Shown here: one piece after another, positions 6,828 to 58,783 of the stretch | Position numbering within the stretch: the first letter of the stretch is position 1 | Layout: each line of letters opens with the position of its first letter | Translations under genes and position numbers: made by a program | The notes under the pieces: model-generated | Database searches by the model: none | The model's input: only the letters and a program-made list of their open reading frames with translations | What the model was told of the DNA's origin: nothing | NCBI GenBank assembly: GCA_021818465.1 | Contig: JAKAEA010000001.1 | Coordinates: forward strand, 311,712 to 375,711 | Origin: a bacterium | GTDB lineage: Bacteria; Patescibacteriota; Minisyncoccia; Phycocordibacterales; JAKAEA01 | Length of the DNA: 64,000 nt | Direction: 5' to 3'

Positions 6828-7317
6828 TGCGTTCATCTGTTGTTTGAGAGGCTTCTAGTTTAGGATGCCAAAAAATAGATTCAATGTTGCGCGTTGCAGA
6901 TTGTAGGGAGTGTTTGTTTGGACAGCCGGTTTTTTGGTCGTTGCTAATAGCGTTGCCGTTTCCAATGTAAAAACCGATGTGACGGTGTAATTCGCCGCCG
7001 CTAAAAGCGGCATTCTCCCATACTACAACACTACCAATGGGCGGCTCGTGTGCGGCTGGCACTTCGTGCCAGCCGCTTTCTTGAAGATCCTTCACCGTGG
7101 AGCTAACCACCGCGTGTGATTTCTTTATTAGTCCAAGTGCAGCGAGTACCGATGACACGAAATATGCGCAGGAAAGCTCGCCATCATGACTGACATCAGT
7201 CACGACATTGTCCACTTCAGCGTACAAATTTCGGTACATTCTGGTGCCAATGCTGTTGTTGATAACTGCTAGATAGCTATCCCGTAATAAGAATTTAACC
7301 GAGGGCTTTTTGTTCAT
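6787..7317 (-). CDS. Putative NlpC/P60-family (papain-like Cys/His) hydrolase
   Basis: Ordered Cys (ELSCAYFVSS) then His block (HRHIGFYIGNGNAISN) resembling NlpC/P60 catalytic motifs; 41-nt convergent overlap with clpB 3' end. Confidence 0.45.
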   Translation of the reverse strand: MNKKPSVKFLLRDSYLAVINNSIGTRMYRNLYAEVDNVVTDVSHDGELSCAYFVSSVLAALGLIKKSHAVVSSTVKDLQESGWHEVPAAHEPPIGSVVVWENAAFSGGELHRHIGFYIGNGNAISNDQKTGCPNKHSLQSATRNIESIFWHPKLEASQTTDERTISLHSVEQKQLV

Positions 7318-7337
7318 ATGTTAATTATACTATGTGG

Positions 7338-7423
7338 GGTGCGCAGGGAGGGATTTGAACCCCCGTAGCCCGTAGGGCGCCTGATTTACAGTCAGGTGCA
7401 ATTGACCACTCTGCCACCTGCGC
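7338..7423 (-). tRNA. tRNA-Tyr (anticodon GTA)
   Basis: Reverse complement: acceptor GCGCAGG/CCTGCGC, anticodon stem CCTGA/TCAGG with loop CTGTAAA, long variable arm (class II), T-loop GGTTCAAAT. Confidence 0.85.
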
Positions 7424-7486
7424 ATATGTGCCTAAGCAAGCTTGTATTCTAGTCGTAAAAGCAGTTATAATCAAGTCTCCTTAATT

Positions 7487-8365
7487 ATGTATACAACATA
7501 TTGCTGGCTGAACGGGAAAATTTTGCCGACTAGGGAAGCGAGTGTAAATGTCCTGGACATCGGGCTCATGCGTGGCTACGCTATCTATGAAGCGCTTACT
7601 ACGTATGGCGGTACGCCATTTATGTTGGCTGACCACCTAGCACGCTTTCGTCAATCAGCTAAAGCTATGAAGCTCGATGTGCTGGCGAGTGATGAGGAAA
7701 TTACGGCGGCCATCAGCGAGCTTGTTGCCCGCAATGGTTTCAAAGAAACGAACATCAAATTTATTTTGACCGGCGGTACAACGATCTCGGGTATAGAATA
7801 TGTACCTGGCCATTCAGTTTTCTATATTCTCGCAGAAGAATTTGTGCCACTAGAGAAAAGATTCGTGGAACACGGTTGTAAACTCATCACGCACGAATTT
7901 CAGCGTCAGTATCCTGGTTACAAAACAACAAACTACATTACCGGGGTTATGTTACAGCCGGCGCGTAAAGCTGCCGGTGCTCTGGAGGTACTTTTTACGT
8001 GGCAGGGTAAGGTGTCCGAATGTGCGACGAGTAATTTTTTTATCGTTAAGAATGGCACGATTGTGACACCAATCGACGGCATTTTATTTGGTATTACTCG
8101 CAAGGTGGTGTTGAGTTTAGCGCGCACGGCCAGTATGCCAATAGAAGAGCGCGATATTACTACAGATGAGCTTACTACAGCCGACGAAGCATTCATTACA
8201 TCGAGCTTTAAGGAGGTGGTGCCGGTGGTGCATATTAACGATGACATAATTGGTGATGGTCGTGTTGGGCCAATGACGCAAAAAATCATACAGCTTTTCA
8301 AAGAATTTTCTCGAGAAGAATCAGTGGCAATCTCTAATATGCATGTGGCAAGCGCCATGTCCTAA
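7487..8365 (+). CDS. Class IV aminotransferase (branched-chain amino acid / D-amino acid aminotransferase family)
   Basis: ORF 7442..8365; probable start MYTTYCWLNGK; N-terminal WLNG..P..EA.V...D.G...G.GI(Y)E fold-type IV signature, TGGT, C-terminal EAFITSS/ EVVPV motif. Confidence 0.8.
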   Translation: MYTTYCWLNGKILPTREASVNVLDIGLMRGYAIYEALTTYGGTPFMLADHLARFRQSAKAMKLDVLASDEEITAAISELVARNGFKETNIKFILTGGTTISGIEYVPGHSVFYILAEEFVPLEKRFVEHGCKLITHEFQRQYPGYKTTNYITGVMLQPARKAAGALEVLFTWQGKVSECATSNFFIVKNGTIVTPIDGILFGITRKVVLSLARTASMPIEERDITTDELTTADEAFITSSFKEVVPVVHINDDIIGDGRVGPMTQKIIQLFKEFSREESVAISNMHVASAMS

Positions 8366-8619: not shown

Positions 8620-9807
8620 ATGGAGCCGCTCGCCTCAAAATTAAGACCCACAAAACTGGCTGATTTCGTTGGTCAGGAGCACTTGGTGGGGAAAGGTAAA
8701 CCACTGGCGCTGGCTATCGCCGACAAGCGTCTTTTTTCCTTCATTTTATGGGGGCCGCCGGGAACAGGTAAGACGACCTTGGCGCGCATCTACGCCAACG
8801 CTCTGAATGCTCATCTCTACGAACTTTCGGCAGTATCGGCCGGTAAGGAAGATATCCGCGCCATCGTGGAAGATCGCAGTATTCTGGACCAGCGGCCCAA
8901 GGTGCTTTTTCTAGATGAGATTCATCGATTCAATAAAGCTCAGCAAGATTTTCTATTGCCCTATGTGGAGAGCGGCGTCCTCTCGCTCGTTGGCGCCACC
9001 ACCGAGAACCCGAGTTTTGAGGTGATTCCGGCGCTCTTGTCGCGTTGCCGAGTGTTTGTACTGAACGAACTCTCGGAGGAAGAGATGGAGAAGATTATCA
9101 TTCGCGCGGCAAGAAATCTTAAAATAAAAATCAACAAAAAGGCGCGCGCATGGCTCGCTGCTATGGCCAACGGCGACGCCCGACAAGCTATCACTGTTTT
9201 AGAAAACGCCCACCAACTTTATGGCGCGACGCTGACTGTTGCCGCGCTACAAGAAACTATTCAGAGCAAATTTTTGCGTTTTGATAAGAAGGGTGAGGAG
9301 CACTACAACGTGATTAGCGCGTTTATAAAGAGCATGCGAGCCGGCGATGCCGACGCTGCGCTCTACTACATGGCGCGGATGCTCGACGCCGGCGAAGACC
9401 CGAAGTTTATCGCTCGGCGAATGGTGGTATTTGCCTCGGAGGATATTGGCCTGGCTCAACCGACGGCCTTGGTGGTGGCTAACGACGTCTTTCGGGCGGT
9501 AGAGACTATTGGCTTGCCGGAGTGCGCCATCAATCTTGCTCATGGTGTTTGCTATCTCGCGGGTGCGCCGAAAAGTCGCCACTCCTACGACGCTCTTCAA
9601 GCCGCCCAAGCTGATGTTAAACAGCACGGCAACCTGCCGGTGCCGCTGCGTCTCCGGAATGCGCCAACCAAGCTTATGAAAGACCTCGGTTATCACGAAG
9701 GCTACGAAAAATATGGTAAAGAAAGCTACCTGCCGGAGCGACTTGCTAAAATCGACAGAAAATACTTGAAGTACAATAAAGATAAAAAAGAGAAGGGTAA
9801 TAAATAA
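8620..9807 (+). CDS. rarA: Replication-associated recombination protein A (RarA/MgsA AAA+ ATPase)
   Basis: ORF 8584..9807; RP.L.DFVGQ.HL N-terminus, Walker A GPPGTGKTTLARI, Walker B FLDEIHRFNK, sensor and MgsA C-terminal helical domain. Confidence 0.85.
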   Translation: MEPLASKLRPTKLADFVGQEHLVGKGKPLALAIADKRLFSFILWGPPGTGKTTLARIYANALNAHLYELSAVSAGKEDIRAIVEDRSILDQRPKVLFLDEIHRFNKAQQDFLLPYVESGVLSLVGATTENPSFEVIPALLSRCRVFVLNELSEEEMEKIIIRAARNLKIKINKKARAWLAAMANGDARQAITVLENAHQLYGATLTVAALQETIQSKFLRFDKKGEEHYNVISAFIKSMRAGDADAALYYMARMLDAGEDPKFIARRMVVFASEDIGLAQPTALVVANDVFRAVETIGLPECAINLAHGVCYLAGAPKSRHSYDALQAAQADVKQHGNLPVPLRLRNAPTKLMKDLGYHEGYEKYGKESYLPERLAKIDRKYLKYNKDKKEKGNK

Positions 9808-9848
9808 AAAAGCCATCTGATCTAATCAGATGGCTGGTATGTAGTGTG

Positions 9849-10592
9849 TTACTCACCAGACTCCATAATGTTTCCGGTACCGACCGTAGCAAATGATTGC
9901 TGATCAGGGGATACAAAAATGATCTTACAACGACAAGGAATTGTGTGGCATTGTGGGCACACTTGGTAATACTTTGCGACTTCCTCCATTAAGTTTATGT
10001 TCTTAATGTAGGCAAAGGCGAGGATCCAGCTAAACAGATCAGCTAGTTCCAAGGCACATTCCTCAATGATTTTTTTAGGGTCATTGGGCGTATTTGGACC
10101 GCTGACACTTAAAATACTAAACTCGCTGAATTCGCTCGTGGCTCGCCCATACACTTCCCAGAATCCACGTTCTCTGTTGTGTTTGCCATAGACGGCATCG
10201 CAGTGTTTTTGCCAATCGGCGATAGTCCATTGGTATTGGGATCGGTCGATTGATCGAACATTTGGATTAGGTCGCTTATTATCTTTACATCGGCATGGTT
10301 TTTGACTGCAATAAGCACATCCGTACCAAGGATATTTTTTTACCATGCTTTCTGCGAGAACAATACGACCATGGTAACCGTTCACCAAGCTCATGAAGTA
10401 TGCAAAACATTTACTCAGCCGTACCTCAAAGGGCAAGCCTTTTCTTTCTGCATCAACCAATCTACCAAGCTGCCGCTGCATATGAGTTGTTCGTTCTGGT
10501 ATTGATATGTTAACGAACAGATTTCGCGTGCCATACAGTTTTTCAAAATGTTCCTGTACTTCAGTAAGCGAACCCCTTAATGGGTTTTTCAT
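9849..10592 (-). CDS. MazG-like nucleotide pyrophosphohydrolase-related protein with two Cys-rich (C..C...PCRC) inserts
   Basis: C-terminal EECALELADLFSWILAFA helix resembles MazG/dUTPase all-alpha NTP-PPase motif; two CxxC..PCRC clusters (CAYCSQKPCRC, CPQCHTIPCRC). Confidence 0.4.
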   Translation of the reverse strand: MKNPLRGSLTEVQEHFEKLYGTRNLFVNISIPERTTHMQRQLGRLVDAERKGLPFEVRLSKCFAYFMSLVNGYHGRIVLAESMVKKYPWYGCAYCSQKPCRCKDNKRPNPNVRSIDRSQYQWTIADWQKHCDAVYGKHNRERGFWEVYGRATSEFSEFSILSVSGPNTPNDPKKIIEECALELADLFSWILAFAYIKNINLMEEVAKYYQVCPQCHTIPCRCKIIFVSPDQQSFATVGTGNIMESGE

Positions 10593-10714
10593 ATAACACC
10601 CCTTTCAAAAAACAAAACGTATACATCAAAACTGTTCGCTATAGTACACTTGATTCCTTCTTGTGCAAGTTTTTCAAAGCCGCTCTTCTTTGGTAATATA
10701 CTATCGTTCAATCT

Positions 10715-10786
10715 GGGCCTATAGTTTCAATGGTAAAACAGCGGTCTCCAAAACCGTCGTTCCCCGTTCGAGTCGGGGTGGGCCCG
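10715..10786 (+). tRNA. tRNA-Trp (anticodon CCA)
   Basis: Acceptor GGGCCTA/TGGGCCC, anticodon stem GCGGT/ACCGT loop CTCCAAA, T-arm CCCCG-TTCGAGT-CGGGG; no encoded CCA. Confidence 0.85.
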
Positions 10787-10839
10787 CTGGGAATAATTAC
10801 GTCCATAACGCATGCTATATATTAAAAAACAGACGGAGG

Positions 10840-11433
10840 TTAATCCGTCTGTAATCTTCGTATGAGGCGTTCGGCGTCGTTTAATTGGGTTCGATAAAAA
10901 GCGAGACGGAATACGTCCCACCTTCTCTTGTTCCAGAATCGATGCTCCTTGAATCTGCCTTCTTCTTTAAAACCAGCTCGGATAAGTGGTAAAAAGGATG
11001 CGGTATTGTATTCATACACCTCAGTATAAATCTTATGGAGATTGTGAATACTCTGGAAAAGATGCTGACTCATGAGTGCGAATGACTCGAAGCCAACAAA
11101 ACCAGATCTGCCTTCTGGTGCTAGAAACGTGGTTACGAAGACATATCCATCACATTTCTTAAGTCCATAAGAATATATGGTGCCAATAAACGACTGTGAT
11201 CGTTGGTGAAAAATCATATACTGCTCATGTCTGTCAGTTGCGAAGTCTTTATCTAATTCTGCCTTAAGTTCCTCCTGGGTAACTATATTTCGTCGGTTGG
11301 TACACATTGTTATATAATCATCACTGTTGCGCCAGGAAGATAATATTTCAATGTGCGACGGTGTGAGTGGAATGAGTCGAACAATACGGCCATTAAGTAT
11401 ACTCATGCACTTCTCCTTGATTGTAAAAGTCAC
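10840..11433 (-). CDS. GNAT family N-acetyltransferase (RimJ/RimL-like)
   Basis: 197 aa; acetyltransf_3 pattern with C-terminal LHKIYTEVYEYNTASFLPLIRAGFKEEGRFKEHRFWNKRRWDV typical of RimL-type GNATs. Confidence 0.7.
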   Translation of the reverse strand: MTFTIKEKCMSILNGRIVRLIPLTPSHIEILSSWRNSDDYITMCTNRRNIVTQEELKAELDKDFATDRHEQYMIFHQRSQSFIGTIYSYGLKKCDGYVFVTTFLAPEGRSGFVGFESFALMSQHLFQSIHNLHKIYTEVYEYNTASFLPLIRAGFKEEGRFKEHRFWNKRRWDVFRLAFYRTQLNDAERLIRRLQTD

Positions 11434-48706: not shown

Positions 48707-49336
48707 ATGGCTTACATTTTTTTGGATGAGAGTGGCGATTTGGGTTTTGGCAAAAAATCGTCAAAATGGTTTCTTTTTACGCTGGTAGTCGTCGATAATC
48801 CCCGAAAATTAGAGCGTCTTATTAAAAAGGTAAGAAAGACGATCAGAAAAAAATACAAGCATGTCCTATCGGAACTTCATGCTTATCACGCCGACGATGT
48901 CACTCGCATCCGTGTACTAAAGGCTATAGCTAAGCTTGATATTGCCGTTGTTACCACAATCCTCAATAAGCAAAAAGTCTATGTTGACCTGCAAAACCAG
49001 AAAAACTATCTTTACAACTACACCGCGAACATAATCCTTGATCGTTTAATGAATGCAACGTTGGTAGATGGCGCAAAGGAAATGTATCTTGTCGTTGATA
49101 GGAAAGATACCAAAAAGAATCTTCGCCAGAATTTTATCTCGTATATTTCAGAAGCCATGAACAAACGTAAAAGAGGCGGATTCAAAATGACTCTTGCCGC
49201 GTCTCACGACGAGAAAGGCCTGCAAGCGGTGGACTTCATTTCTTGGGCCATTTTTAGAAAATATGAGAAAGGAGACTGTGAGTTTTATGAGATTATTAAG
49301 TCCAAGATCGTGGACGAACGCTTGCTTTTCCCATAA
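48707..49336 (+). CDS. DUF3800 domain protein
   Basis: N-terminal IFLDESGD motif and overall DUF3800 pattern; sits at edge of RM/defence island. Confidence 0.6.
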   Translation: MAYIFLDESGDLGFGKKSSKWFLFTLVVVDNPRKLERLIKKVRKTIRKKYKHVLSELHAYHADDVTRIRVLKAIAKLDIAVVTTILNKQKVYVDLQNQKNYLYNYTANIILDRLMNATLVDGAKEMYLVVDRKDTKKNLRQNFISYISEAMNKRKRGGFKMTLAASHDEKGLQAVDFISWAIFRKYEKGDCEFYEIIKSKIVDERLLFP

Positions 49337-49474: not shown

Positions 49475-49972
49475 TTAACAGTCCAATTTTTCAATATCTT
49501 TCAAAATCTCGGCGGCGTGCGTCGCTGGGTCCACGTCTGGGTACACGGCAATGATTTTTCCAACGTCAGTACCACTCGCGGCAATTAGGTACGACACCCG
49601 GGCTGTCCCGCCGGCAAATGGTCCCGACTCGCGAATGGCCTCGTAGGCGCCAATAGTTTCTTTTCGCTCGTCGGAGAGCAAGGTAAAGGGCAAATGGTAC
49701 TTCTCGGCGAATTTTTTATGACTAGCCACCGAATCCTTAGACACGCCGAAGACCTTGATATCCGCCCGCTGGAAATCCTCATACCGCTCGGCAATCGTAC
49801 ACGCTTCCGTAGTGCACCCCGGCGTGTCATCCTTGGGATAGAAGTAGAGGAGGATAAATCGCGTCGGCGGAGTAGTCTGACTGGCGTTTTTTAAATGGTA
49901 CGCCAGCGTATGTTCCCGTCCATCTTGGTCGGGGAGGGAGAATTCTGGGGCTTGGGTGGTGATGTTGAGCAT
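49475..49972 (-). CDS. bcp: Peroxiredoxin (Bcp/thiol peroxidase, AhpC-TSA family)
   Basis: FYPKDDTPGCTTEA peroxidatic Cys motif; probable start MLNITTQAPEF (ORF 49475..50071). Confidence 0.8.
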   Translation of the reverse strand: MLNITTQAPEFSLPDQDGREHTLAYHLKNASQTTPPTRFILLYFYPKDDTPGCTTEACTIAERYEDFQRADIKVFGVSKDSVASHKKFAEKYHLPFTLLSDERKETIGAYEAIRESGPFAGGTARVSYLIAASGTDVGKIIAVYPDVDPATHAAEILKDIEKLDC

Positions 49973-50046
49973 ATCCTTATTATGACATATATGGAGATAA
50001 AATGTTTCTAAAATTTTTCTAAAGAAAAGTTGAAGAAAAGGTAAAA

Positions 50047-51650
<1,604 letters not shown>

Positions 51651-51654
<4 letters not shown>

Positions 51655-51992
51655 TCATGGCGGATTACTACGACACAATGCAAGTGTGCGTGCGATGGGG
51701 GCACAAGACGACGGAATACTATAACCGAAGCCCGCAGTGGGGTGCCGACTTCTGTCCGCAATGCGGAAGCGCGACTACCATCGTGTGTGGAAAATGTGGG
51801 GCTAACATACGTGGTCACCATCATTTTGATGGTTTTTTCTCTGCCGTAGACACTAAAGTGCCTCTCAACTGCCATGCCTGCGGCGTAGCGTATTCATGGA
51901 AGTTTCGACACGTCGTAAGAAACTTCTTCAAGGCGTTAGTCGCACCCGTGAAGTACCTGATAGACGCCCTGGTGAGCGTTTTCAAGAAATGA
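51651..51992 (+). CDS. Small Cys-rich zinc-ribbon protein embedded between hsdM and hsdS (113 aa)
   Basis: GTG/ATG start overlapping hsdM stop, stop overlapping hsdS ATG (ATGA); three CxxC pairs (CPQCG, CGKCG, CHACG). Confidence 0.55.
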
Positions 51993-53155
51993 GCATGGCA
52001 ACTACCGAATGGAAAGAAACAACACTTGGTGATGTCTGCCTTGTTGAGAGTGGCGGGACTCCTTCGACAGCGAATAATACATACTGGAGTGGCTCGGTCT
52101 CTTGGATAACGCCTCGAGACCTGGCGTCACATGAAGGCCGTTGGATTGAACAAGGCGAAAAGAACATTACGGAAGAAGGGTTGCGAAACTCTTCTGCGCG
52201 CTTGCTGCCGAAAAACACCGTACTTTTTTCTTCGCGTGCTCCCATCGGTTATGTAGCAATCGCTGCACGAGAACTGGCAACGAATCAGGGTTTAAAGAAT
52301 CTTGTATGTGATGAGAAAGAGACGCATTACAAGTTTATCTACTATTGGCTGAAGGCGAACGTGCATGCTATCGAGCGACGGGCGTCTGGCTCTACTTTTG
52401 CTGAAGCGTCCGCGACGGTAATGAAAACACAGGAGGTGTTGCTTCCGCCACTTGACGAGCAGCGCTCCATTGCAACAGTGCTCTCTAGCTTGGACGACAA
52501 AATCGAACTCCTACGACGGCAGAATGAGACACTAGAGCAGATTGCGCAGGCGATTTTCAACGAGTGGTTCGTGAAGCCGACGAGTAAGCGCGTACCGCTT
52601 CGCGAGTTGGTTGAGTTCAACCCAGCCACACCACTCAAAAAAGGAACCGTTGCGGCCTATTTTGACATGGGTGCGCTACCGACCGTGGGCAGTTGGCCCG
52701 AAGAACCCATACAAAGACCCTTCGGCTCGGGGGCGAAGTTCCAAAATGGAGACACTCTGCTTGCACGCATTACTCCTTGTCTCGAAAATGGCAAGACCGC
52801 ATTTGTGCAGCGTCTAAAAAATGGTGAGGTTGCGTGGGGTTCAACTGAATTCATCGTAATCCGCCCAAACTCACCGCTACCGCCTACGTTTGGGTATTTG
52901 CTCGCCAGGAATCCTTCGTTTCGAGATTTTACTATACGCGCAATGACTGGCACGTCTGGTAGGCAGCGCGTACAGGTAGATATGCTGCTCGAATATGAGG
53001 TCTCAATGCCGAGCGACGATGTGATATCGGAGTTCTCTCATGCGGTCGAGGTCATATTCTCAAAAATAAAGAACAATGCCGAGCAAGCCGACACACTGGC
53101 AGCTACGCGCGATGCGCTGTTGCCGCGGCTGATGAGTGGCGAAATACGAGTATAA
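51989..53155 (+). CDS. hsdS: Type I restriction-modification system specificity subunit
   Basis: Two target-recognition domains separated by conserved central repeat (LDEQRSIATVLSSLDDKIELL), C-terminal conserved helix (LPRLMSGEIRV). Confidence 0.85.
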   Translation: MSMATTEWKETTLGDVCLVESGGTPSTANNTYWSGSVSWITPRDLASHEGRWIEQGEKNITEEGLRNSSARLLPKNTVLFSSRAPIGYVAIAARELATNQGLKNLVCDEKETHYKFIYYWLKANVHAIERRASGSTFAEASATVMKTQEVLLPPLDEQRSIATVLSSLDDKIELLRRQNETLEQIAQAIFNEWFVKPTSKRVPLRELVEFNPATPLKKGTVAAYFDMGALPTVGSWPEEPIQRPFGSGAKFQNGDTLLARITPCLENGKTAFVQRLKNGEVAWGSTEFIVIRPNSPLPPTFGYLLARNPSFRDFTIRAMTGTSGRQRVQVDMLLEYEVSMPSDDVISEFSHAVEVIFSKIKNNAEQADTLAATRDALLPRLMSGEIRV

Positions 53156-53157
53156 AT

Positions 53158-53856
53158 ATGAGAATAATCAAACTTTACTTCAGAATATTTTGGATACCCG
53201 TCCTCCTCCTTGTGGCGGCGGTTGGGTGCTGGATTTTTGTTCCCAGTACAATAGATGTTTTTGATGCTGGAGTATTAGGTACAGCATTTGGTGTAGGCAT
53301 ATCAATTTTTGCTGCTGAAGGAATGAAGAAAGTGTCCGAACATAAACGCGTCAAGAGAACATTCGTCTTTTTGAAGCTGATCACTATTCCGTATCTAAAG
53401 AATCAGGCAGAAAATATATCTGCCACATTGAATAAATACCGCGATTTATGCTCCATAGAACAAACGGTAGATTTTCTTACATTGGGTGCACATTTTGATG
53501 CCATTGCGACAAATTTTGACAAAAGTTGGCTCCAGTTGGTGTACTCCCAGGATTTTGTTGATGCTATAGAGTCTGACGACCACTTCAATAAATTGGCGAA
53601 TGCAATTCTTGAGGTGCTTCTATTCATTAAACAGGCGACAGGGCAATCAATTAACGCGAAAACACTTCTTATGATGAACAATATCTCCAACCTCAATGAT
53701 ATTCAGAAACAAGAGATGATGACTCGTGCAAAAAAGATAAGAGACGATCTTTTAGATAATGTTCAAAAGTTGGAAAAATATATAGGTAAACTTGACGAAG
53801 AAATAATCGCATTTTTGATCAAGAATGGAGCTACGTATAGCGAATTTGAAAGATAA
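53158..53856 (+). CDS. Hypothetical 2-TM membrane protein embedded between hsdS and hsdR (AT-rich)
   Basis: Start 2 nt after hsdS stop, stop 1 nt before hsdR ATG; two N-terminal TM helices then helical soluble domain; ~35% GC within ~60% GC operon. Confidence 0.55.
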
Positions 53857-53857
53857 T

Positions 53858-56800
53858 ATGAACCGAATCTACGAAAGCGACATCGAGAAGTGGGCTATCG
53901 AGGCACTGGAACACCAGGGCTACACGTACCTCGCACCCGAGACGCAGGAGGCCGAGCGCGGTGACCTGCACGACGTCGTGCTCGCGGGGCGGTTGCGCGA
54001 GGCCGTGGCACGACTCAACCCTAGAGTGCCCGAAGACGCGCGCGAGGACGCGGTCAAAAAAGTGCTCGCGCTTTCGTCATCGCCGCACTTGATAGAGGCA
54101 AACGAGGAGTTCCAGCGGATGCTCACTGATGGCGTGAGCGTGTCTTCCTACGCTGATGGCGAACAACGTGGCGAGGTCGTCCGCGTCATCGACTTCGCAG
54201 ATCCGCGCAATAACGACCTCGTGGTGGCCAACCAGTTCTCGGTACTCCACGACAACACTAGCAAGCGCCCCGACGTGGTACTCATCGTCAACGGCCTGCC
54301 TCTCGTCGTCATCGAGCTAAAGAACCCGACGGATGAGAACGCGACCGTGCACAAGGCGTACCAGCAGCTCGACAACTACAAGCGAGCCATTCCGCAGCTG
54401 TTCGCCTACAACAGCGTCCTGGTGGCCTCTGACGGCATAGACGCGAAGGCAGGGGCGCTCACGAGCCCGTGGGAGCGCTTCGCTATCTGGCGTGCGCCCG
54501 AGGGTAAGCGCGAGAAGGAAAAGACGACGCCGCAGATGCAGGTGCTCGTCGAGGAGATGCTCCAGCCCGAGGTGCTGCTCGACGTGGTGCGCAGCTTTAC
54601 GGTCTTTGAGAAGACGCGCCGCGAGGATGCGAAAACAGGTCAGACCATCGTGGAAACCATCAAGAAAATCGCGCAGTATCACCAATACTACGTGGTCAAT
54701 AAAGCGGTCGCTTCGACGACTAAGGCCACCGCAGAACATGGCGAGCGCAAAATCGGCGTCGTATGGCATACGCAGGGTTCGGGCAAGTCGCTCTCGATGG
54801 TGTTCTACACGGGCAAGGTCGTGCTCGCGCTCGATAACCCGACGGTGGTGGTGCTCACTGACCGCAACGACCTCGACGACCAGCTCTTCGAGACGTTTGC
54901 TGGTGCTCGCGACCTCTTGCGCCAGGAGCCCGTGCAGGCCGAAAGCCGCGAACACCTGAAGAAGCTTTTGCAGACGGCTGGTGGCGGCATCATCTTCACC
55001 ACCATTCAGAAGTTCTTCCCCGAGGACGGCGGGAGCACGTATGACGAGCTGTCCGACCGCAAGAACATCGTCGTCGTTGCGGACGAGGCGCACCGCAGCC
55101 AGTACGGCTTCGCGGCGCGAACGGTCTTCAAGAACGACGAGGCCATCACGCGCTACGGCAGCGCCAAGTACCTGCGCGACGCACTCCCGAACGCCTCGTT
55201 CATCGGCTTCACGGGTACGCCTATCGAGAAGGAGGACAAGTCCACGCTCGCTGTTTTCGGCGAGTATCTCGACGTGTACGACATCCAGCGTGCGGTCGAA
55301 GACAAAGCAACCGTTCCCATCTACTACGAGAGCCGTTTGGTGAAGGTGCACCTGCCCGACGACAAGAAAGCGGAGATGGACGAAGACGTGGAGGCGGTGG
55401 CCGAGGGCATCGAGTTTTCAGCAAAGGAGAAAGCCAAAGCGAAGTGGGCGCAGCTCGAAGCCATCGTCGGTAATCGCGAGCGAATCAAAGAGGTCGCTCG
55501 CGACCTGGTGGAGCACTTTGAGACGCGGCAAGAGGTCTTCACGGGCAAAGCGATGGTCGTGGCGATGAGCCGTCGTATCGCGGTGGAGCTGTACGAGGAG
55601 ATTGTCGCGCTCCGTCCCGAGTGGCACAGCACCGATTTGGATAAGGGCAAAATCAAGGTGGTGATGTCGGCGAGTTCGAGCGACCCGAAAGAGTTCCAGC
55701 AGCACCACACGAACAAGCCCGACCGCCGCAAGCTCGCGGAGCGTTTCAAAGACCCTACCAACCCGCTCCAGCTCGTCATCGTGCGTGACATGTGGCTCAC
55801 GGGCTTCGACGTGCCGTGCCTGCACACGATGTACGTGGACAAGCTCATGGAGGGCCACAATCTCATGCAAGCCATCGCTCGCGTCAATCGCGTCTATAAA
55901 GACAAGCCAGGCGGTCTCATCGTGGACTACATCGGCTTTGCCTCCGACTTGCAGAAAGCGCTCGCCGTCTACACCGAGAGCGGCGGCAAGGGCGACCCGA
56001 CCATCACGCAGAAGAAAGCCATCGAGGTGATGCAGGAGAAGTACGAGGTGGTGAAGCAGATGTTCCATGGCTTCGACTACCAGCGCTACTTCGCCGCCGA
56101 CACGCACGCGAAGCTCGGCATTATCCTCGAGGCGCAGGAGCACATTCTCGCGCAAGACCAAGACGACGAAGGCGCGTCAGGCAAGGAAAAGAAGAAAACC
56201 AGCGCCAAAGAGCGGTTCGTGCGGGAGGTTATGGCGCTGTCGCAGTCGTTTGCGCTTGCGGTGCCGAGCGAGGCGGCGATGGAGATACGCGACGAGGTTG
56301 CGTTCTTCCAGGCAATCAAGGCACGGCTTGTGAAGTTTGAGCCCGAGGGCGCACCTGGCACCGAGAACATCGGTACCGCTATTCGCCAAATCGTCGATCA
56401 GGCACTCGTGGCCGAGGGTGTCGTGGACATCTTTGCTGCGGCAGGCGTGCAGAAGCCCGACCTCTCCGTTCTCTCGGACGAGTTCCTCGCCGAGGTGCAA
56501 GGCATGAAGCATCGCAACCTGGCGATGGAGTTGCTGCGCAAGATTTTGAACGACGAGATAAAGCTACGCCTGCGCCGCAACGCGCTCCAGGGCAAGAAGC
56601 TCTCGGAGATGCTCGATAAGACCATCAAGAAGTATCAAAACAACCTGCTCACGGCCTCCGAGGTCATCCAAGAGCTCATCGAGCTGGCAAAGCAGATACG
56701 GCAGGAAGACGCCCGCGGCACGCAACTCGGCCTCTCTGACGACGAGGTGGCCTTCTACGATGCGCTGGCCGAAAACGAGAGCGCCCGCGAGGTGCTGGGC

Positions 56801-57064
56801 GATGAACAGCTGCGCGACCTCGCCCGTGTCCTCGTCGACAAGGTGCGCAAGAACACCTCGATTGACTGGACTATCCGTGAGAACGTACAAGCCCGCCTGC
56901 GCGTCTTGGTGAAGCGCACGCTCAACCAGTACGGCTATCCGCCCGATAAGCAGGCCATCGCCACCGAGACCGTGCTGAAGCAGGCTGAACTATTCGCCGA
57001 CGAGTGGGATGATTCTAGTTTGGATACTGTACAAAAAATTACTTCAGAGACTTTAAAGAAATAA
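53858..57064 (+). CDS. hsdR: Type I restriction enzyme R subunit
   Basis: N-terminal nuclease/HsdR_N region, SF2 helicase motifs (GSGKS Walker A, DEAHRSQ), 1068 aa. Confidence 0.9.
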
Positions 57065-57337: not shown

Positions 57338-57496
57338 CATGGGCTGGTTCATATTCATCGCCTTCATTTGTTTTCTCATTGTGCTGGGAGTGGTGCTGGG
57401 TAAAGACCCTATAAAGTTCACGATTGGGACGCTCGTGGTTCTTATGGCGTTGGCCTTTGTGGTTATAGCGTTTTACGTGCTTAAATCTGTGTTATG
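57338..57496 (+). CDS. Small membrane protein (52 aa, two hydrophobic helices)
   Basis: Not in ORF track (below 60 aa); preceded by extended -10 TGCTATACT; stop overlaps next gene start (ATGA). Confidence 0.45.
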
Positions 57497-58033
57497 ATTA
57501 TAAATATCATGTTCATCTGGATTATTGTCGCAATTTTGCTCTTTGTGCTGGTTGTTGTAATGGCGACCAACGTGGTGGCGGGAGGCCGTAGGCGGAGGGG
57601 TGGCTATACCTACAAAAAAGCTGATTGTGTTATGACGCAATCAGAAAAAATATGTTTTGAAGCGTTACAGAAAGCGGCGGGGAATACGTATTATATTTTC
57701 CCCCAGATGCACTTATCGGCCATTTTAAATCACAAAATCAACAGGCAGAGTTGGTATGGAGCCTTTCGGCATATTAATGGGAAATCGGTTGACTTTGTTT
57801 TGTGCGATAAGGTGATGCTCAAGCCGATGTTAGTTGTTGAACTGGATGACAGAACGCACGAGCGGCGTGATAGGCATATACGAGACAGAGAAGTAGAACG
57901 GATACTTAAAGAGGCTGATGTGCCGCTACTGCGGCTTTCGACCGTGTCGCCGCAAGACCCACTGGCTGTGGCGATTAATGGGGCAATAACGAGAACGTCA
58001 ATTGACCACGTGATGGGTTCTCAGGGGGTTTGA
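57494..58033 (+). CDS. DUF2726 domain protein (restriction-endonuclease-like fold) with N-terminal TM helix
   Basis: EKICFEAL...YIFPQMHLSAIL...GKSVDFVLCDK...PMLVVELDDRTHE matches DUF2726/PD-(D/E)xK-like pattern. Confidence 0.6.
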   Translation: MIINIMFIWIIVAILLFVLVVVMATNVVAGGRRRRGGYTYKKADCVMTQSEKICFEALQKAAGNTYYIFPQMHLSAILNHKINRQSWYGAFRHINGKSVDFVLCDKVMLKPMLVVELDDRTHERRDRHIRDREVERILKEADVPLLRLSTVSPQDPLAVAINGAITRTSIDHVMGSQGV

Positions 58034-58078: not shown

Positions 58079-58783
58079 ATGGATGCGGAATCGTTAAAAT
58101 TGGAACAACAGGCATACGATTTTATTGCTCATAGTGGGAGTGAGCTTGTTAAGCGTTTCGCCGACCCAACAATATATAAGCCAGTAGAGCGACCAGTCTC
58201 GCTTTTTATGGCCGGCTCGTCGGGGGCAGGAAAGACGGAAGTCTCTATAGGTTTAGTTAAACGTTTTACCACGAGGCCGATCCGGATTGATGCTGACGAA
58301 ATTCGGCAACTGTGTCCGGGGTATACTGGTGGCAATGCTCATGTATTTCAGAAGGCAGCTACCAAGGGCGTAAACATGCTTTTTGACTATGCACTTCATA
58401 AAAATATCCACGCCATCCTTGACGGCACGTTCGCGTATGCTGACGCGCCAAAGAATATTGAACGTTCATTGAAACATAACAGGATTGTCGAATTGTGGTT
58501 TGTGTATCAAGACCCTTTAGTGGCATGGGAGTTTACCAAAGTAAGAGAAATAAAAGAATGTCGTCATGTAGATAAGGATATCTTCATTAGAGGTTTCTTC
58601 AACGCAAAAGCCAATGCAATAAATGTTAAAACAGCTTTTGGAAGCAACCTTACGCTTAATTTACTCGTAAAGAACATCGACAATACTGACGGTGAGTTGT
58701 TTTTGAACATTCAAGCAAACGACCTTGACCATCGAATTGGGCAGGTATACACTGAGGGTGAATTGCGAGGACTATTACTATGA
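58079..58783 (+). CDS. Zeta-toxin-like P-loop kinase
   Basis: Walker A FMAGSSGAGKT, overall zeta_toxin/AAA_33 pattern, ~234 aa. Confidence 0.6.
   Translation: MDAESLKLEQQAYDFIAHSGSELVKRFADPTIYKPVERPVSLFMAGSSGAGKTEVSIGLVKRFTTRPIRIDADEIRQLCPGYTGGNAHVFQKAATKGVNMLFDYALHKNIHAILDGTFAYADAPKNIERSLKHNRIVELWFVYQDPLVAWEFTKVREIKECRHVDKDIFIRGFFNAKANAINVKTAFGSNLTLNLLVKNIDNTDGELFLNIQANDLDHRIGQVYTEGELRGLLL

Follow-up and report, generated by a model that had tools for sequence, protein, structure and literature searches.

Restriction-modification (RM) systems of Type I are thought to need only three subunits, HsdR, HsdM and HsdS. What, then, might be the role of a further small gene that is packed between hsdM and hsdS? 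The question is raised by a stretch of 64,000 nucleotides (nt) from a member of the Patescibacteriota (assembly GCA_021818465.1, contig JAKAEA010000001.1, positions 311,712 to 375,711 of the forward strand), referred to here as the window, in which an open reading frame (ORF) for a small protein with several cysteine motifs joins the methyltransferase gene of a Type I operon to its specificity gene. The gene and its protein are called ZnR, for zinc ribbon. ZnR is genuine, consists of a predicted zinc-binding domain of the DUF2321 family followed by a short basic helix, and recurs in the same position in Type I loci of other genomes. The reading that we tentatively prefer, with somewhat less than even confidence, is that ZnR is an accessory defence module or helper embedded in RM loci. 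To our knowledge, the defence biology of Patescibacteria is almost unstudied experimentally.

A genuine gene between hsdM and hsdS

The original prediction described a protein of 113 amino acids at 51651-51992, and the longest-ORF call, from a GTG at 51651 to a TGA ending at 51992 on the plus strand, is confirmed. The N-termini of homologues align as M-x-x-[YH]-[YF]-D-T-M-Q-V-C and thereby identify ATG 51657 as the true start of a product of 111 amino acids, from which residues are numbered here. The ZnR gene accordingly occupies 51657..51992 on the plus strand, with its stop codon TGA at 51990-51992, as supported by a Pfam match to PF10083 (E=2.3e-20), full-length homologues and the N-terminal alignment. 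Its start lies 2 nt past the hsdM stop (TGA 51652-51654), and the overlap with that stop that had been proposed exists solely for the unsupported GTG start (in the form GTGA) and disappears at the real one. At the other end, the N-termini of hsdS homologues align from ‘M..WKETTLG’ and the Pfam Methylase_S match starts at residue 7 of the product that begins at ATG 51989, which is why this codon is taken as the hsdS start. An overlap with the start of hsdS therefore survives, as the 4 nt of ATGA, whereas the 97 nt counted from the longest hsdS ORF (51896) are an artefact.

A short ORF for which longest-ORF calls give overlaps with both neighbours might be an out-of-frame artefact that happens to read through the junction of hsdM and hsdS. 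This explanation has negligible probability and we regard it as ruled out by the Pfam match, by 1242 clusters of HMMER homologues and by a confident AlphaFold model; full-length homologues also occur in loci with differing flanking genes, and ZnR has an intergenic slot of its own once the real starts of its neighbours are applied. ZnR is a genuine gene. The minus-strand ORF opposite it (51501-51875) gave no family match, and neither did other minus-strand ORFs across the region.

A conserved, predicted zinc-binding domain

ZnR matches the Pfam family DUF2321 (PF10083), which is described there as an ‘uncharacterized protein conserved in bacteria’, with 73.3 bits against a gathering cut-off of 24. 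The match is limited to model positions 1-81 of 157 and leaves the C-terminal half (82-157) unmatched, so that the C-terminus of ZnR is unlike that of canonical DUF2321 proteins; judging from the profile, ZnR belongs to the family through its N-terminal domain only. The view that ZnR is not a known RM component holds to the extent that it lacks homology to core subunits, since no Pfam match to N6_Mtase, Methylase_S, HSDR_N or ResIII was found in it and it is thus not recognisable as a core Hsd subunit. Its description as an unrecognised protein has to be given up, as the family is catalogued in Pfam.

Homologues are numerous. A single-sequence, word-indexed protein search returned 1 match, and the remainder came from a profile query and an exhaustive HMMER search over 1.84 billion representatives, which yielded the 1242 representative clusters at E<=1e-3, of which 319 were found at E<=1e-10. 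Metagenomes were scanned with an alignment of 8 close ZnR sequences as query. Full-length homologues are 42-57% identical to ZnR. Exact-sequence look-up of the window’s ZnR found no record, and a scan of viral contigs for relatives found none.

The putative zinc-binding domain comprises residues 4-81 (51666..51899, plus strand) and is delimited by conserved columns and by an AlphaFold2 model. Its motifs CVRWGH, CPQCG...CGKCG and CHACG are present as first described, with the correction that the spacer within the second is of 6 residues (SATTIV) and not 7. In alignments of 85 and 150 sequences the four ligand pairs C11/H16, C33/C36, C44/C47 and C72/C75 are invariant or at least 90% conserved. 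These eight conserved ligands, the Pfam match and the model agree with the earlier suggestion of two zinc-binding sites, taken as predicted sites, in which C11/H16 would pair with C33/C36 and C44/C47 with C72/C75.

The AlphaFold2 model, built from the 85-sequence alignment, has a mean pLDDT (predicted local distance difference test) of 91 and a pTM (predicted template modelling score) of 0.73. Residues 3-80 are predicted to be beta-rich (pLDDT 85-97), with the knuckles at strand ends, and are followed by a single long helix from 82 to 110. The model displays the paired CxxC/CxnH knuckles on beta hairpins that characterise a zinc ribbon, and ZnR has weak Pfam matches to DZR and Zn_ribbon. Structural searches with Foldseek returned solely generic resemblances to rubredoxin or TniQ-type knuckles (E>0.6). 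Matches in the PDB to C2H2 zinc-finger arrays were rejected as spurious, being summed repeat matches with per-domain E values of at least 0.016. No match to ZnR was found in NCBIfam, none among the PADLOC families at E<=1, and none to a helix-turn-helix (HTH) or other known DNA-binding family in Pfam or NCBIfam.

The coding sequence of ZnR also contains, at 51817-51843 on the plus strand, a terminator-like hairpin with a 7-bp stem, 3 GC pairs and a T-run; it coincides with a stretch specific to the window (HHHFDGFF), is weak and may be fortuitous.

A basic C-terminal helix

Residues 82-111 (51900..51989, plus strand) make up a putative basic amphipathic helix, recognised from the modelled helix, its charge, its hydrophobic moment and a terminal motif. 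The tail has a net charge of about +6 and a hydrophobic moment of 0.5-0.8. The motif, P97-x-K99-Y100-x2-D103...F109-K-K, lies at the extreme C-terminus and is kept in about 20 short-form relatives, and the tail as a whole is unrelated to that of canonical DUF2321 members. Close relatives of 129-138 amino acids carry, instead of the basic helix, an uncharged hydrophobic tail of 18-20 residues that resembles a transmembrane segment.

Recurrence beside restriction genes

Loci were collected by searches with the ZnR sequence alone as query, and duplicates were merged to leave 21 distinct short-form loci. Type I genes are present in 16 of them, of which 13 have ZnR downstream of hsdM and in the same orientation; in nine its start is at most 10 nt from the hsdM stop, and in eight its stop codon abuts or overlaps the hsdS start. 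In the window, as in 10 other loci, the position of ZnR is between hsdM and hsdS, and the gene is thus embedded in a defence system. The original prediction had proposed to look for co-occurrence with hsdM or hsdS and for a conserved position relative to the N-terminus of HsdS, and both are borne out by the typical order hsdM-ZnR-hsdS and by the eight junctions just mentioned.

Three of the 21 loci that are without Type I genes place ZnR beside other restriction genes, with the orders HTH-ZnR-EcoRI-like methyltransferase-GmrSD_N/HNH (L013 and L017) and Mrr-ZnR (L016). A GmrSD_N-ZnR arrangement is also found downstream of hsdM and hsdR in L004, and one locus is on a contig too short to judge. 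Longer forms, of 130 amino acids in L046 and 148 in L048, are likewise downstream of hsdM; the latter abuts hsdS, and the gene after the former is cut off. Where extra genes occur they are usually between hsdM and ZnR (L005, L009, L032, L039, L046 and L048), and they separate ZnR from hsdS solely in L015 and L039. Since inserted genes mostly fall on the hsdM side, the ZnR-hsdS junction is the best-kept link.

The named source records of the short form are Kaiserbacteria, Moranbacteria, Saccharibacteria and Magasanikbacteria; the Kaiserbacteria lineage was confirmed to lie within the Patescibacteria group, and we take the other three to be Patescibacteria as well. The association spans two HsdM families with a mutual identity of about 32%. 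Identities of ZnR and HsdM show no correlation over 36 pairs (Spearman -0.02): the HsdM of the window is 85-88% identical in amino acids to those of L035 and L037, whereas the ZnR proteins are 45-48% identical, and the reverse is found between L018 and L019, with 68% identity for ZnR and 33% for HsdM. ZnR therefore appears to have been exchanged between distinct Type I families while its slot was kept.

Such junctions invite the explanation that ZnR is an accessory or regulatory partner of the enzyme itself. The helix would then dock on the methyltransferase core (for example on the HsdS/HsdM helical bundle) or tether that core at the membrane, and the zinc domain would bind DNA or a phage factor and tune methylation against restriction, as in the establishment of the system in a new host or in restriction alleviation. 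In its favour are the coupled stop and start codons through which many loci link ZnR to hsdM and hsdS, the insertions that leave ZnR-hsdS intact (L005, L009, L046, L048 and L032), the position of the same clade beside an EcoRI-like methyltransferase with GmrSD_N-HNH, beside Mrr and beside GmrSD_N, and the conserved polar residues K99, Y100 and D103 of a tail that is not merely hydrophobic. The idea of a dedicated subunit is weakened because ZnR has not co-evolved with HsdM (HsdM is 88% identical in a case where ZnR is 48% identical, and the reverse also occurs), because no fusion to HsdM, HsdS or HsdR occurs among the 150 best representatives of the family, and because the restriction systems that ZnR accompanies are unrelated in mechanism, one locus having none at all. 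It would moreover be unexpected for an RM subunit that the zinc domain of its relatives drives effectors of the suicide type. We consider a partnership of this kind possible but doubtful.

Base composition and exchange of the hsdS cassette

The mean GC content of the window is 0.468. The ZnR gene had been said to match its island in GC content and to have been acquired together with the RM genes, and neither claim is supported. Its GC content and its GC content at third codon positions (GC3) are 0.515 and 0.598, against 0.605 and 0.818 for hsdM and 0.595 and 0.800 for hsdR; the values are 0.512 and 0.527 for hsdS, and 0.375 and 0.382 for an embedded gene, ORF232, that follows it. Comparison by blastn with the sister metagenomic loci L035 and L037 gave 76-82% DNA identity over 50131-51704 and 53857-57010. 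The similarity ends at 51703-51704, about 50 nt into ZnR, and restarts at 53857, at the start of hsdR; between 51704 and 53857 the sole match is one of 48 nt to L035 at 53112-53159. Because similarity is limited to hsdM with the 5′-end of ZnR and to hsdR, the body of ZnR, hsdS and ORF232 are interpreted as a swapped central cassette (51704..53856, no strand assigned), in agreement with the step in GC3. ZnR thus rides with hsdS in the variable cassette, separately from hsdM and hsdR, and one mosaic breakpoint falls in its conserved 5′-end.

A cassette of this kind could carry a hitch-hiking passenger, whether selfish, toxin-like or neutral, that rides in the junction of hsdM and hsdS, which is prone to recombination, without any functional link to restriction. 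Such a passenger would account for the crossover point within ZnR and for the lack of co-evolution with HsdM, and distant members of the family are indeed scattered in mobile genetic elements without RM genes. Neutrality does not predict the occupation of the same slot across HsdM families that are about 32% identical or the position beside three other kinds of restriction gene, and the eight invariant ligands and the conserved tail, at 42-57% identity, indicate clear purifying selection. Passenger status is therefore judged unlikely.

The wider DUF2321 family

The family was surveyed for fusions in its 150 best representatives. All 150 have the zinc domain, which is N-terminal in most and preceded by an extra extension of at least 60 amino acids in 7, and the parts that follow it fall into 46 unrelated sequence clusters. 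Partners recognised by Pfam include a DpnII-MboI restriction endonuclease (REase; 12 cases), Ymh HEPN (7) and three TIR families (about 8), together with caspase, AbiJ_NTD3 or AbiJ_NTD5, protein kinase, PLD and EAD11; transmembrane C-termini also occur. Where these fusions match PADLOC (Aga_Helical-REase, Aga_HEPN, PD-Lambda-3_B, PDC-S35 and PDC-S05), the effector halves alone are covered and never the zinc domain. The layout of the family would be one of sensor plus effector, by analogy with abortive-infection proteins. The original prediction had named nucleic-acid sensing and regulation of the methyltransferase/endonuclease balance as possible roles, and the fusions favour a sensor or adaptor role of the zinc domain in conflict systems.

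The same fusions bear on the suggestion that ZnR controls its operon, transcriptionally or translationally, in the manner of C proteins or RptR but based on zinc. ZnR is small, its tail is basic and its zinc ribbon is of a fold that often serves in nucleic-acid binding, and small regulators such as RptR are strongly tied to Type I RM systems (PMC12255303). A controller would not be expected in a family that joins its zinc domain to effectors instead of regulatory outputs; ZnR does not occupy the 5′-end of its operon, small HTH genes are already upstream of it in L013, L017, L035 and L001, and it matches no HTH or known DNA-binding family. We rate this suggestion as very improbable.

Canonical members of about 150-250 amino acids are found in accessory regions of a Bacillus megaplasmid and of a Klebsiella integrative and conjugative element, and in temperate Staphylococcus phages, where they are reverse-strand genes in early regions. 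The phage arrangement is moron-like, which is typical of prophage-encoded exclusion or defence genes. In phages phi879 (L044, 4001-4471) and phiRS7 (L045, 3995-4462) the DUF2321 gene is opposite to the early/replication genes.

Two further contexts were seen. A canonical protein of 159 amino acids, P0218, is encoded between an HSP70 gene and GroES/GroEL in L042 and L043 (4030-8773); it is indexed in 237 blocks of the collection, and this chaperone context is unlike the RM or mobile-element contexts. At L047 (422-1200), a ZnR gene of 122 amino acids is succeeded by a pair of short ORFs, each with a match to the DpnII-MboI REase, as if frameshifts had broken up a ZnR-REase fusion.

Possible functions of ZnR

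If ZnR is an accessory defence module or helper, it would be a minimal member of a conflict-system family, in which the C-terminus is the output and the zinc domain a recognition or adaptor module whose target might be a phage protein, a nucleic acid or some partner. The output of ZnR would be its amphipathic helix, acting by association with or perturbation of the membrane or by docking onto a partner. ZnR would then act beside restriction, as its helper or as a second defence layer, and would move with the exchangeable hsdS cassette and not with hsdM and hsdR.

Several observations weigh against this proposal. No PADLOC, PHROG-type or solved-structure relative was found that would anchor a mechanism, and no experiments on any DUF2321 member were found in the literature. 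The short form is without an enzymatic effector, so that an autonomous defence function would rest on a helix of 30 residues, and that helix is too charged for a transmembrane segment. The terminal F-K-K codons (TTCAAGAAA) are directly 5′ of the start of the next gene, and their conservation may be due in part to downstream translation initiation. ZnR at one locus, L040, is without any RM gene within 8 kb, and the strict adjacency to hsdS with coupled stop and start fits a partnership with the RM enzyme equally well. A literature search for DUF2321 (PF10083, COG4306) or for a zinc ribbon between hsdM and hsdS found nothing relevant.

A broader idea, which we consider improbable, is that ZnR is a broadly compatible fourth component of Patescibacteria restriction systems. 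Its zinc domain would be a sensor, held by the helix at the membrane or at the methyltransferase core, that couples the detection of phage DNA or anti-restriction factors to whichever enzyme is encoded alongside, be it Type I, EcoRI-like methyltransferase with GmrSD-HNH, or Mrr.

The Type I operon and its surroundings

The operon of the window is on the plus strand throughout. The hsdM gene (50047..51654; N6_Mtase 1e-109, HsdM_N 5e-25) encodes the Type I methyltransferase subunit; its longest ORF, from TTG 50047, overlaps the 5′-end of an opposite-strand peroxiredoxin gene (49475-50071), and because of this overlap and because homologue alignments begin near residue 30 the real start is probably ATG 50080. 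The specificity gene hsdS occupies 51989..53155 (Methylase_S 6e-36, with the start supported by the N-terminal alignment). Next comes ORF232 (53158..53856), an embedded gene of low GC content, as given above, whose product has a pair of hydrophobic segments near its N-terminus and is charged in its C-terminal half. Pfam, NCBIfam and PADLOC returned no match for it, and it may be cargo that encodes a membrane effector. ORF232 was dismissed as a partner of ZnR, as no relatives of it could be detected in the other loci. The restriction/translocase gene hsdR (53858..57064) was recognised from tblastn matches to HsdR of related loci; its longest ORF begins at 53825, and its probable start, ATG 53858, is 1 nt past the ORF232 stop. 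The genes are thus tightly packed, with 2 nt between hsdM and ZnR, the ATGA overlap between ZnR and hsdS, 2 nt between hsdS and ORF232 and 1 nt between ORF232 and hsdR, and no promoter-like site was found on the plus strand within the operon. From this arrangement, ZnR is most likely translated in step with the M and S subunits.

A DUF3800 gene (48707..49336, plus strand; PF12686 5e-18) marks the upstream edge of the island. In L039, from Saccharibacteria, a DUF3800 homologue (7107-7751) separates hsdM from ZnR, and DUF3800 may be another recurrent RM-linked passenger. Downstream of hsdR on the plus strand are genes for a DUF2726 protein with a REase fold (57494-58033; Pfam 1e-27) and for a protein of the Zeta-toxin family (58079-58783; Pfam 2e-32). 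With chromosomal genes for topoisomerase I, ParB and a sigma factor around it, the locus is a small chromosomal defence island.

A conserved partner gene besides the hsd genes was sought among the neighbours of ZnR in the other loci and rejected, as the candidates (the c4/c5 cassette, a 252-amino-acid ORF and c31) are absent from most loci. The cassette c4-ZnR-c5, with c4 of 112-145 and c5 of 284 amino acids, occurs in two loci, as does the 252-amino-acid ORF directly 3′ of ZnR, and neither has a Pfam match. Recurrent genes adjoin ZnR at L001 (1725-3357), L011 (about 9660-11200), L015 (10344-11702) and L039 (8330-9088). Related Type I loci are rich in other cargo, namely PycTM, a reverse transcriptase (RVT_1), a DUF3644 HEPN protein and Schlafen/HATPase proteins (cargo coordinates: L037, 7121-7624; L048, 8625-10145; L005, 9714-10769; L046, 2490-6231). 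The DUF3644 HEPN protein of these loci is likened to the validated HEC-08, and its gene follows hsdS in L005.

Comparison with known systems

Compared with canonical DUF2321 proteins of about 160 amino acids, ZnR has in common the N-terminal 80 or so residues and all the Cys/His ligands, and differs in the 30-residue basic helix with a terminal motif of its own that it has in place of their C-terminal half. The contexts differ as well, being accessory regions of mobile genetic elements, phage morons and the HSP70-GroES neighbourhood for the canonical proteins and RM loci for ZnR. A conserved uncharacterised zinc protein thus gains a reproducible address, directly 5′ of hsdS in divergent Type I families and beside other restriction enzymes.

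The family resembles the AbiJ-NTD1-5 modules, which are exchanged for one another at the N-termini of HEPN, REase and TIR effectors and for which a ‘CxxH-CxxC Zn ribbon’ ahead of AbiJ-NTD5 has also been described (Anantharaman et al. 2013, PMC3710099). The logic is the same in both families, in that one N-terminal module is combined with interchangeable HEPN, REase, TIR, kinase or PLD effectors, and some DUF2321 members join the zinc domain with AbiJ_NTD3 or AbiJ_NTD5. AbiJ-NTDs are alpha+beta domains, whereas that of ZnR is predicted to be a zinc-stabilised beta domain and is followed by no effector domain. Recurring as it does at the N-terminus of REase, HEPN, TIR and caspase effectors, the DUF2321 zinc domain becomes a concrete candidate for an infection-sensing or adaptor domain. 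Another defence-embedded system pairs zinc-ribbon-like modules with a conflict effector; the modules are C-terminal there, and the likeness to ZnR is one of composition and of embedding.

C proteins and RptR are small and RM-linked, as ZnR is (PMC12255303), but they bind DNA through an HTH and their genes are found at the operon's 5′-end or upstream of the R gene, whereas ZnR has no HTH and is encoded in mid-operon.

Defence functions are over-represented among the genes embedded in Type I RM loci (10.1101/2024.01.29.577857; PMC11411939; PMC12255303), and such genes have repeatedly proved to be new defence systems. PrrC/RloC, DarTG2, TgvAB and the PADLOC ‘PDC’ candidates are, like ZnR, encoded on the same strand among the hsd genes and apparently co-transcribed with them, and the ZnR family has conflict-type fusions. 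ZnR differs from these embedded systems in that it has no ATPase, nuclease or toxin-antitoxin domain and no PADLOC model; in particular, the ABC-ATPase and HEPN nuclease that define PrrC/RloC are absent from its 111 amino acids. Known embedded genes are mostly found between hsdS and hsdR, whereas ZnR lies between hsdM and hsdS and abuts the latter. DUF2321 (PF10083) does not appear in the ‘guilt by embedding’ paper of Payne et al. 2024 or its supplements. If ZnR works with the RM enzymes, it would add a layer of regulation or sensing to classical restriction, and if it acts alone it would be among the smallest defence modules known. ZnR fits the phenomenon of defence genes that reside within Type I RM loci and is missing from the catalogue of them.

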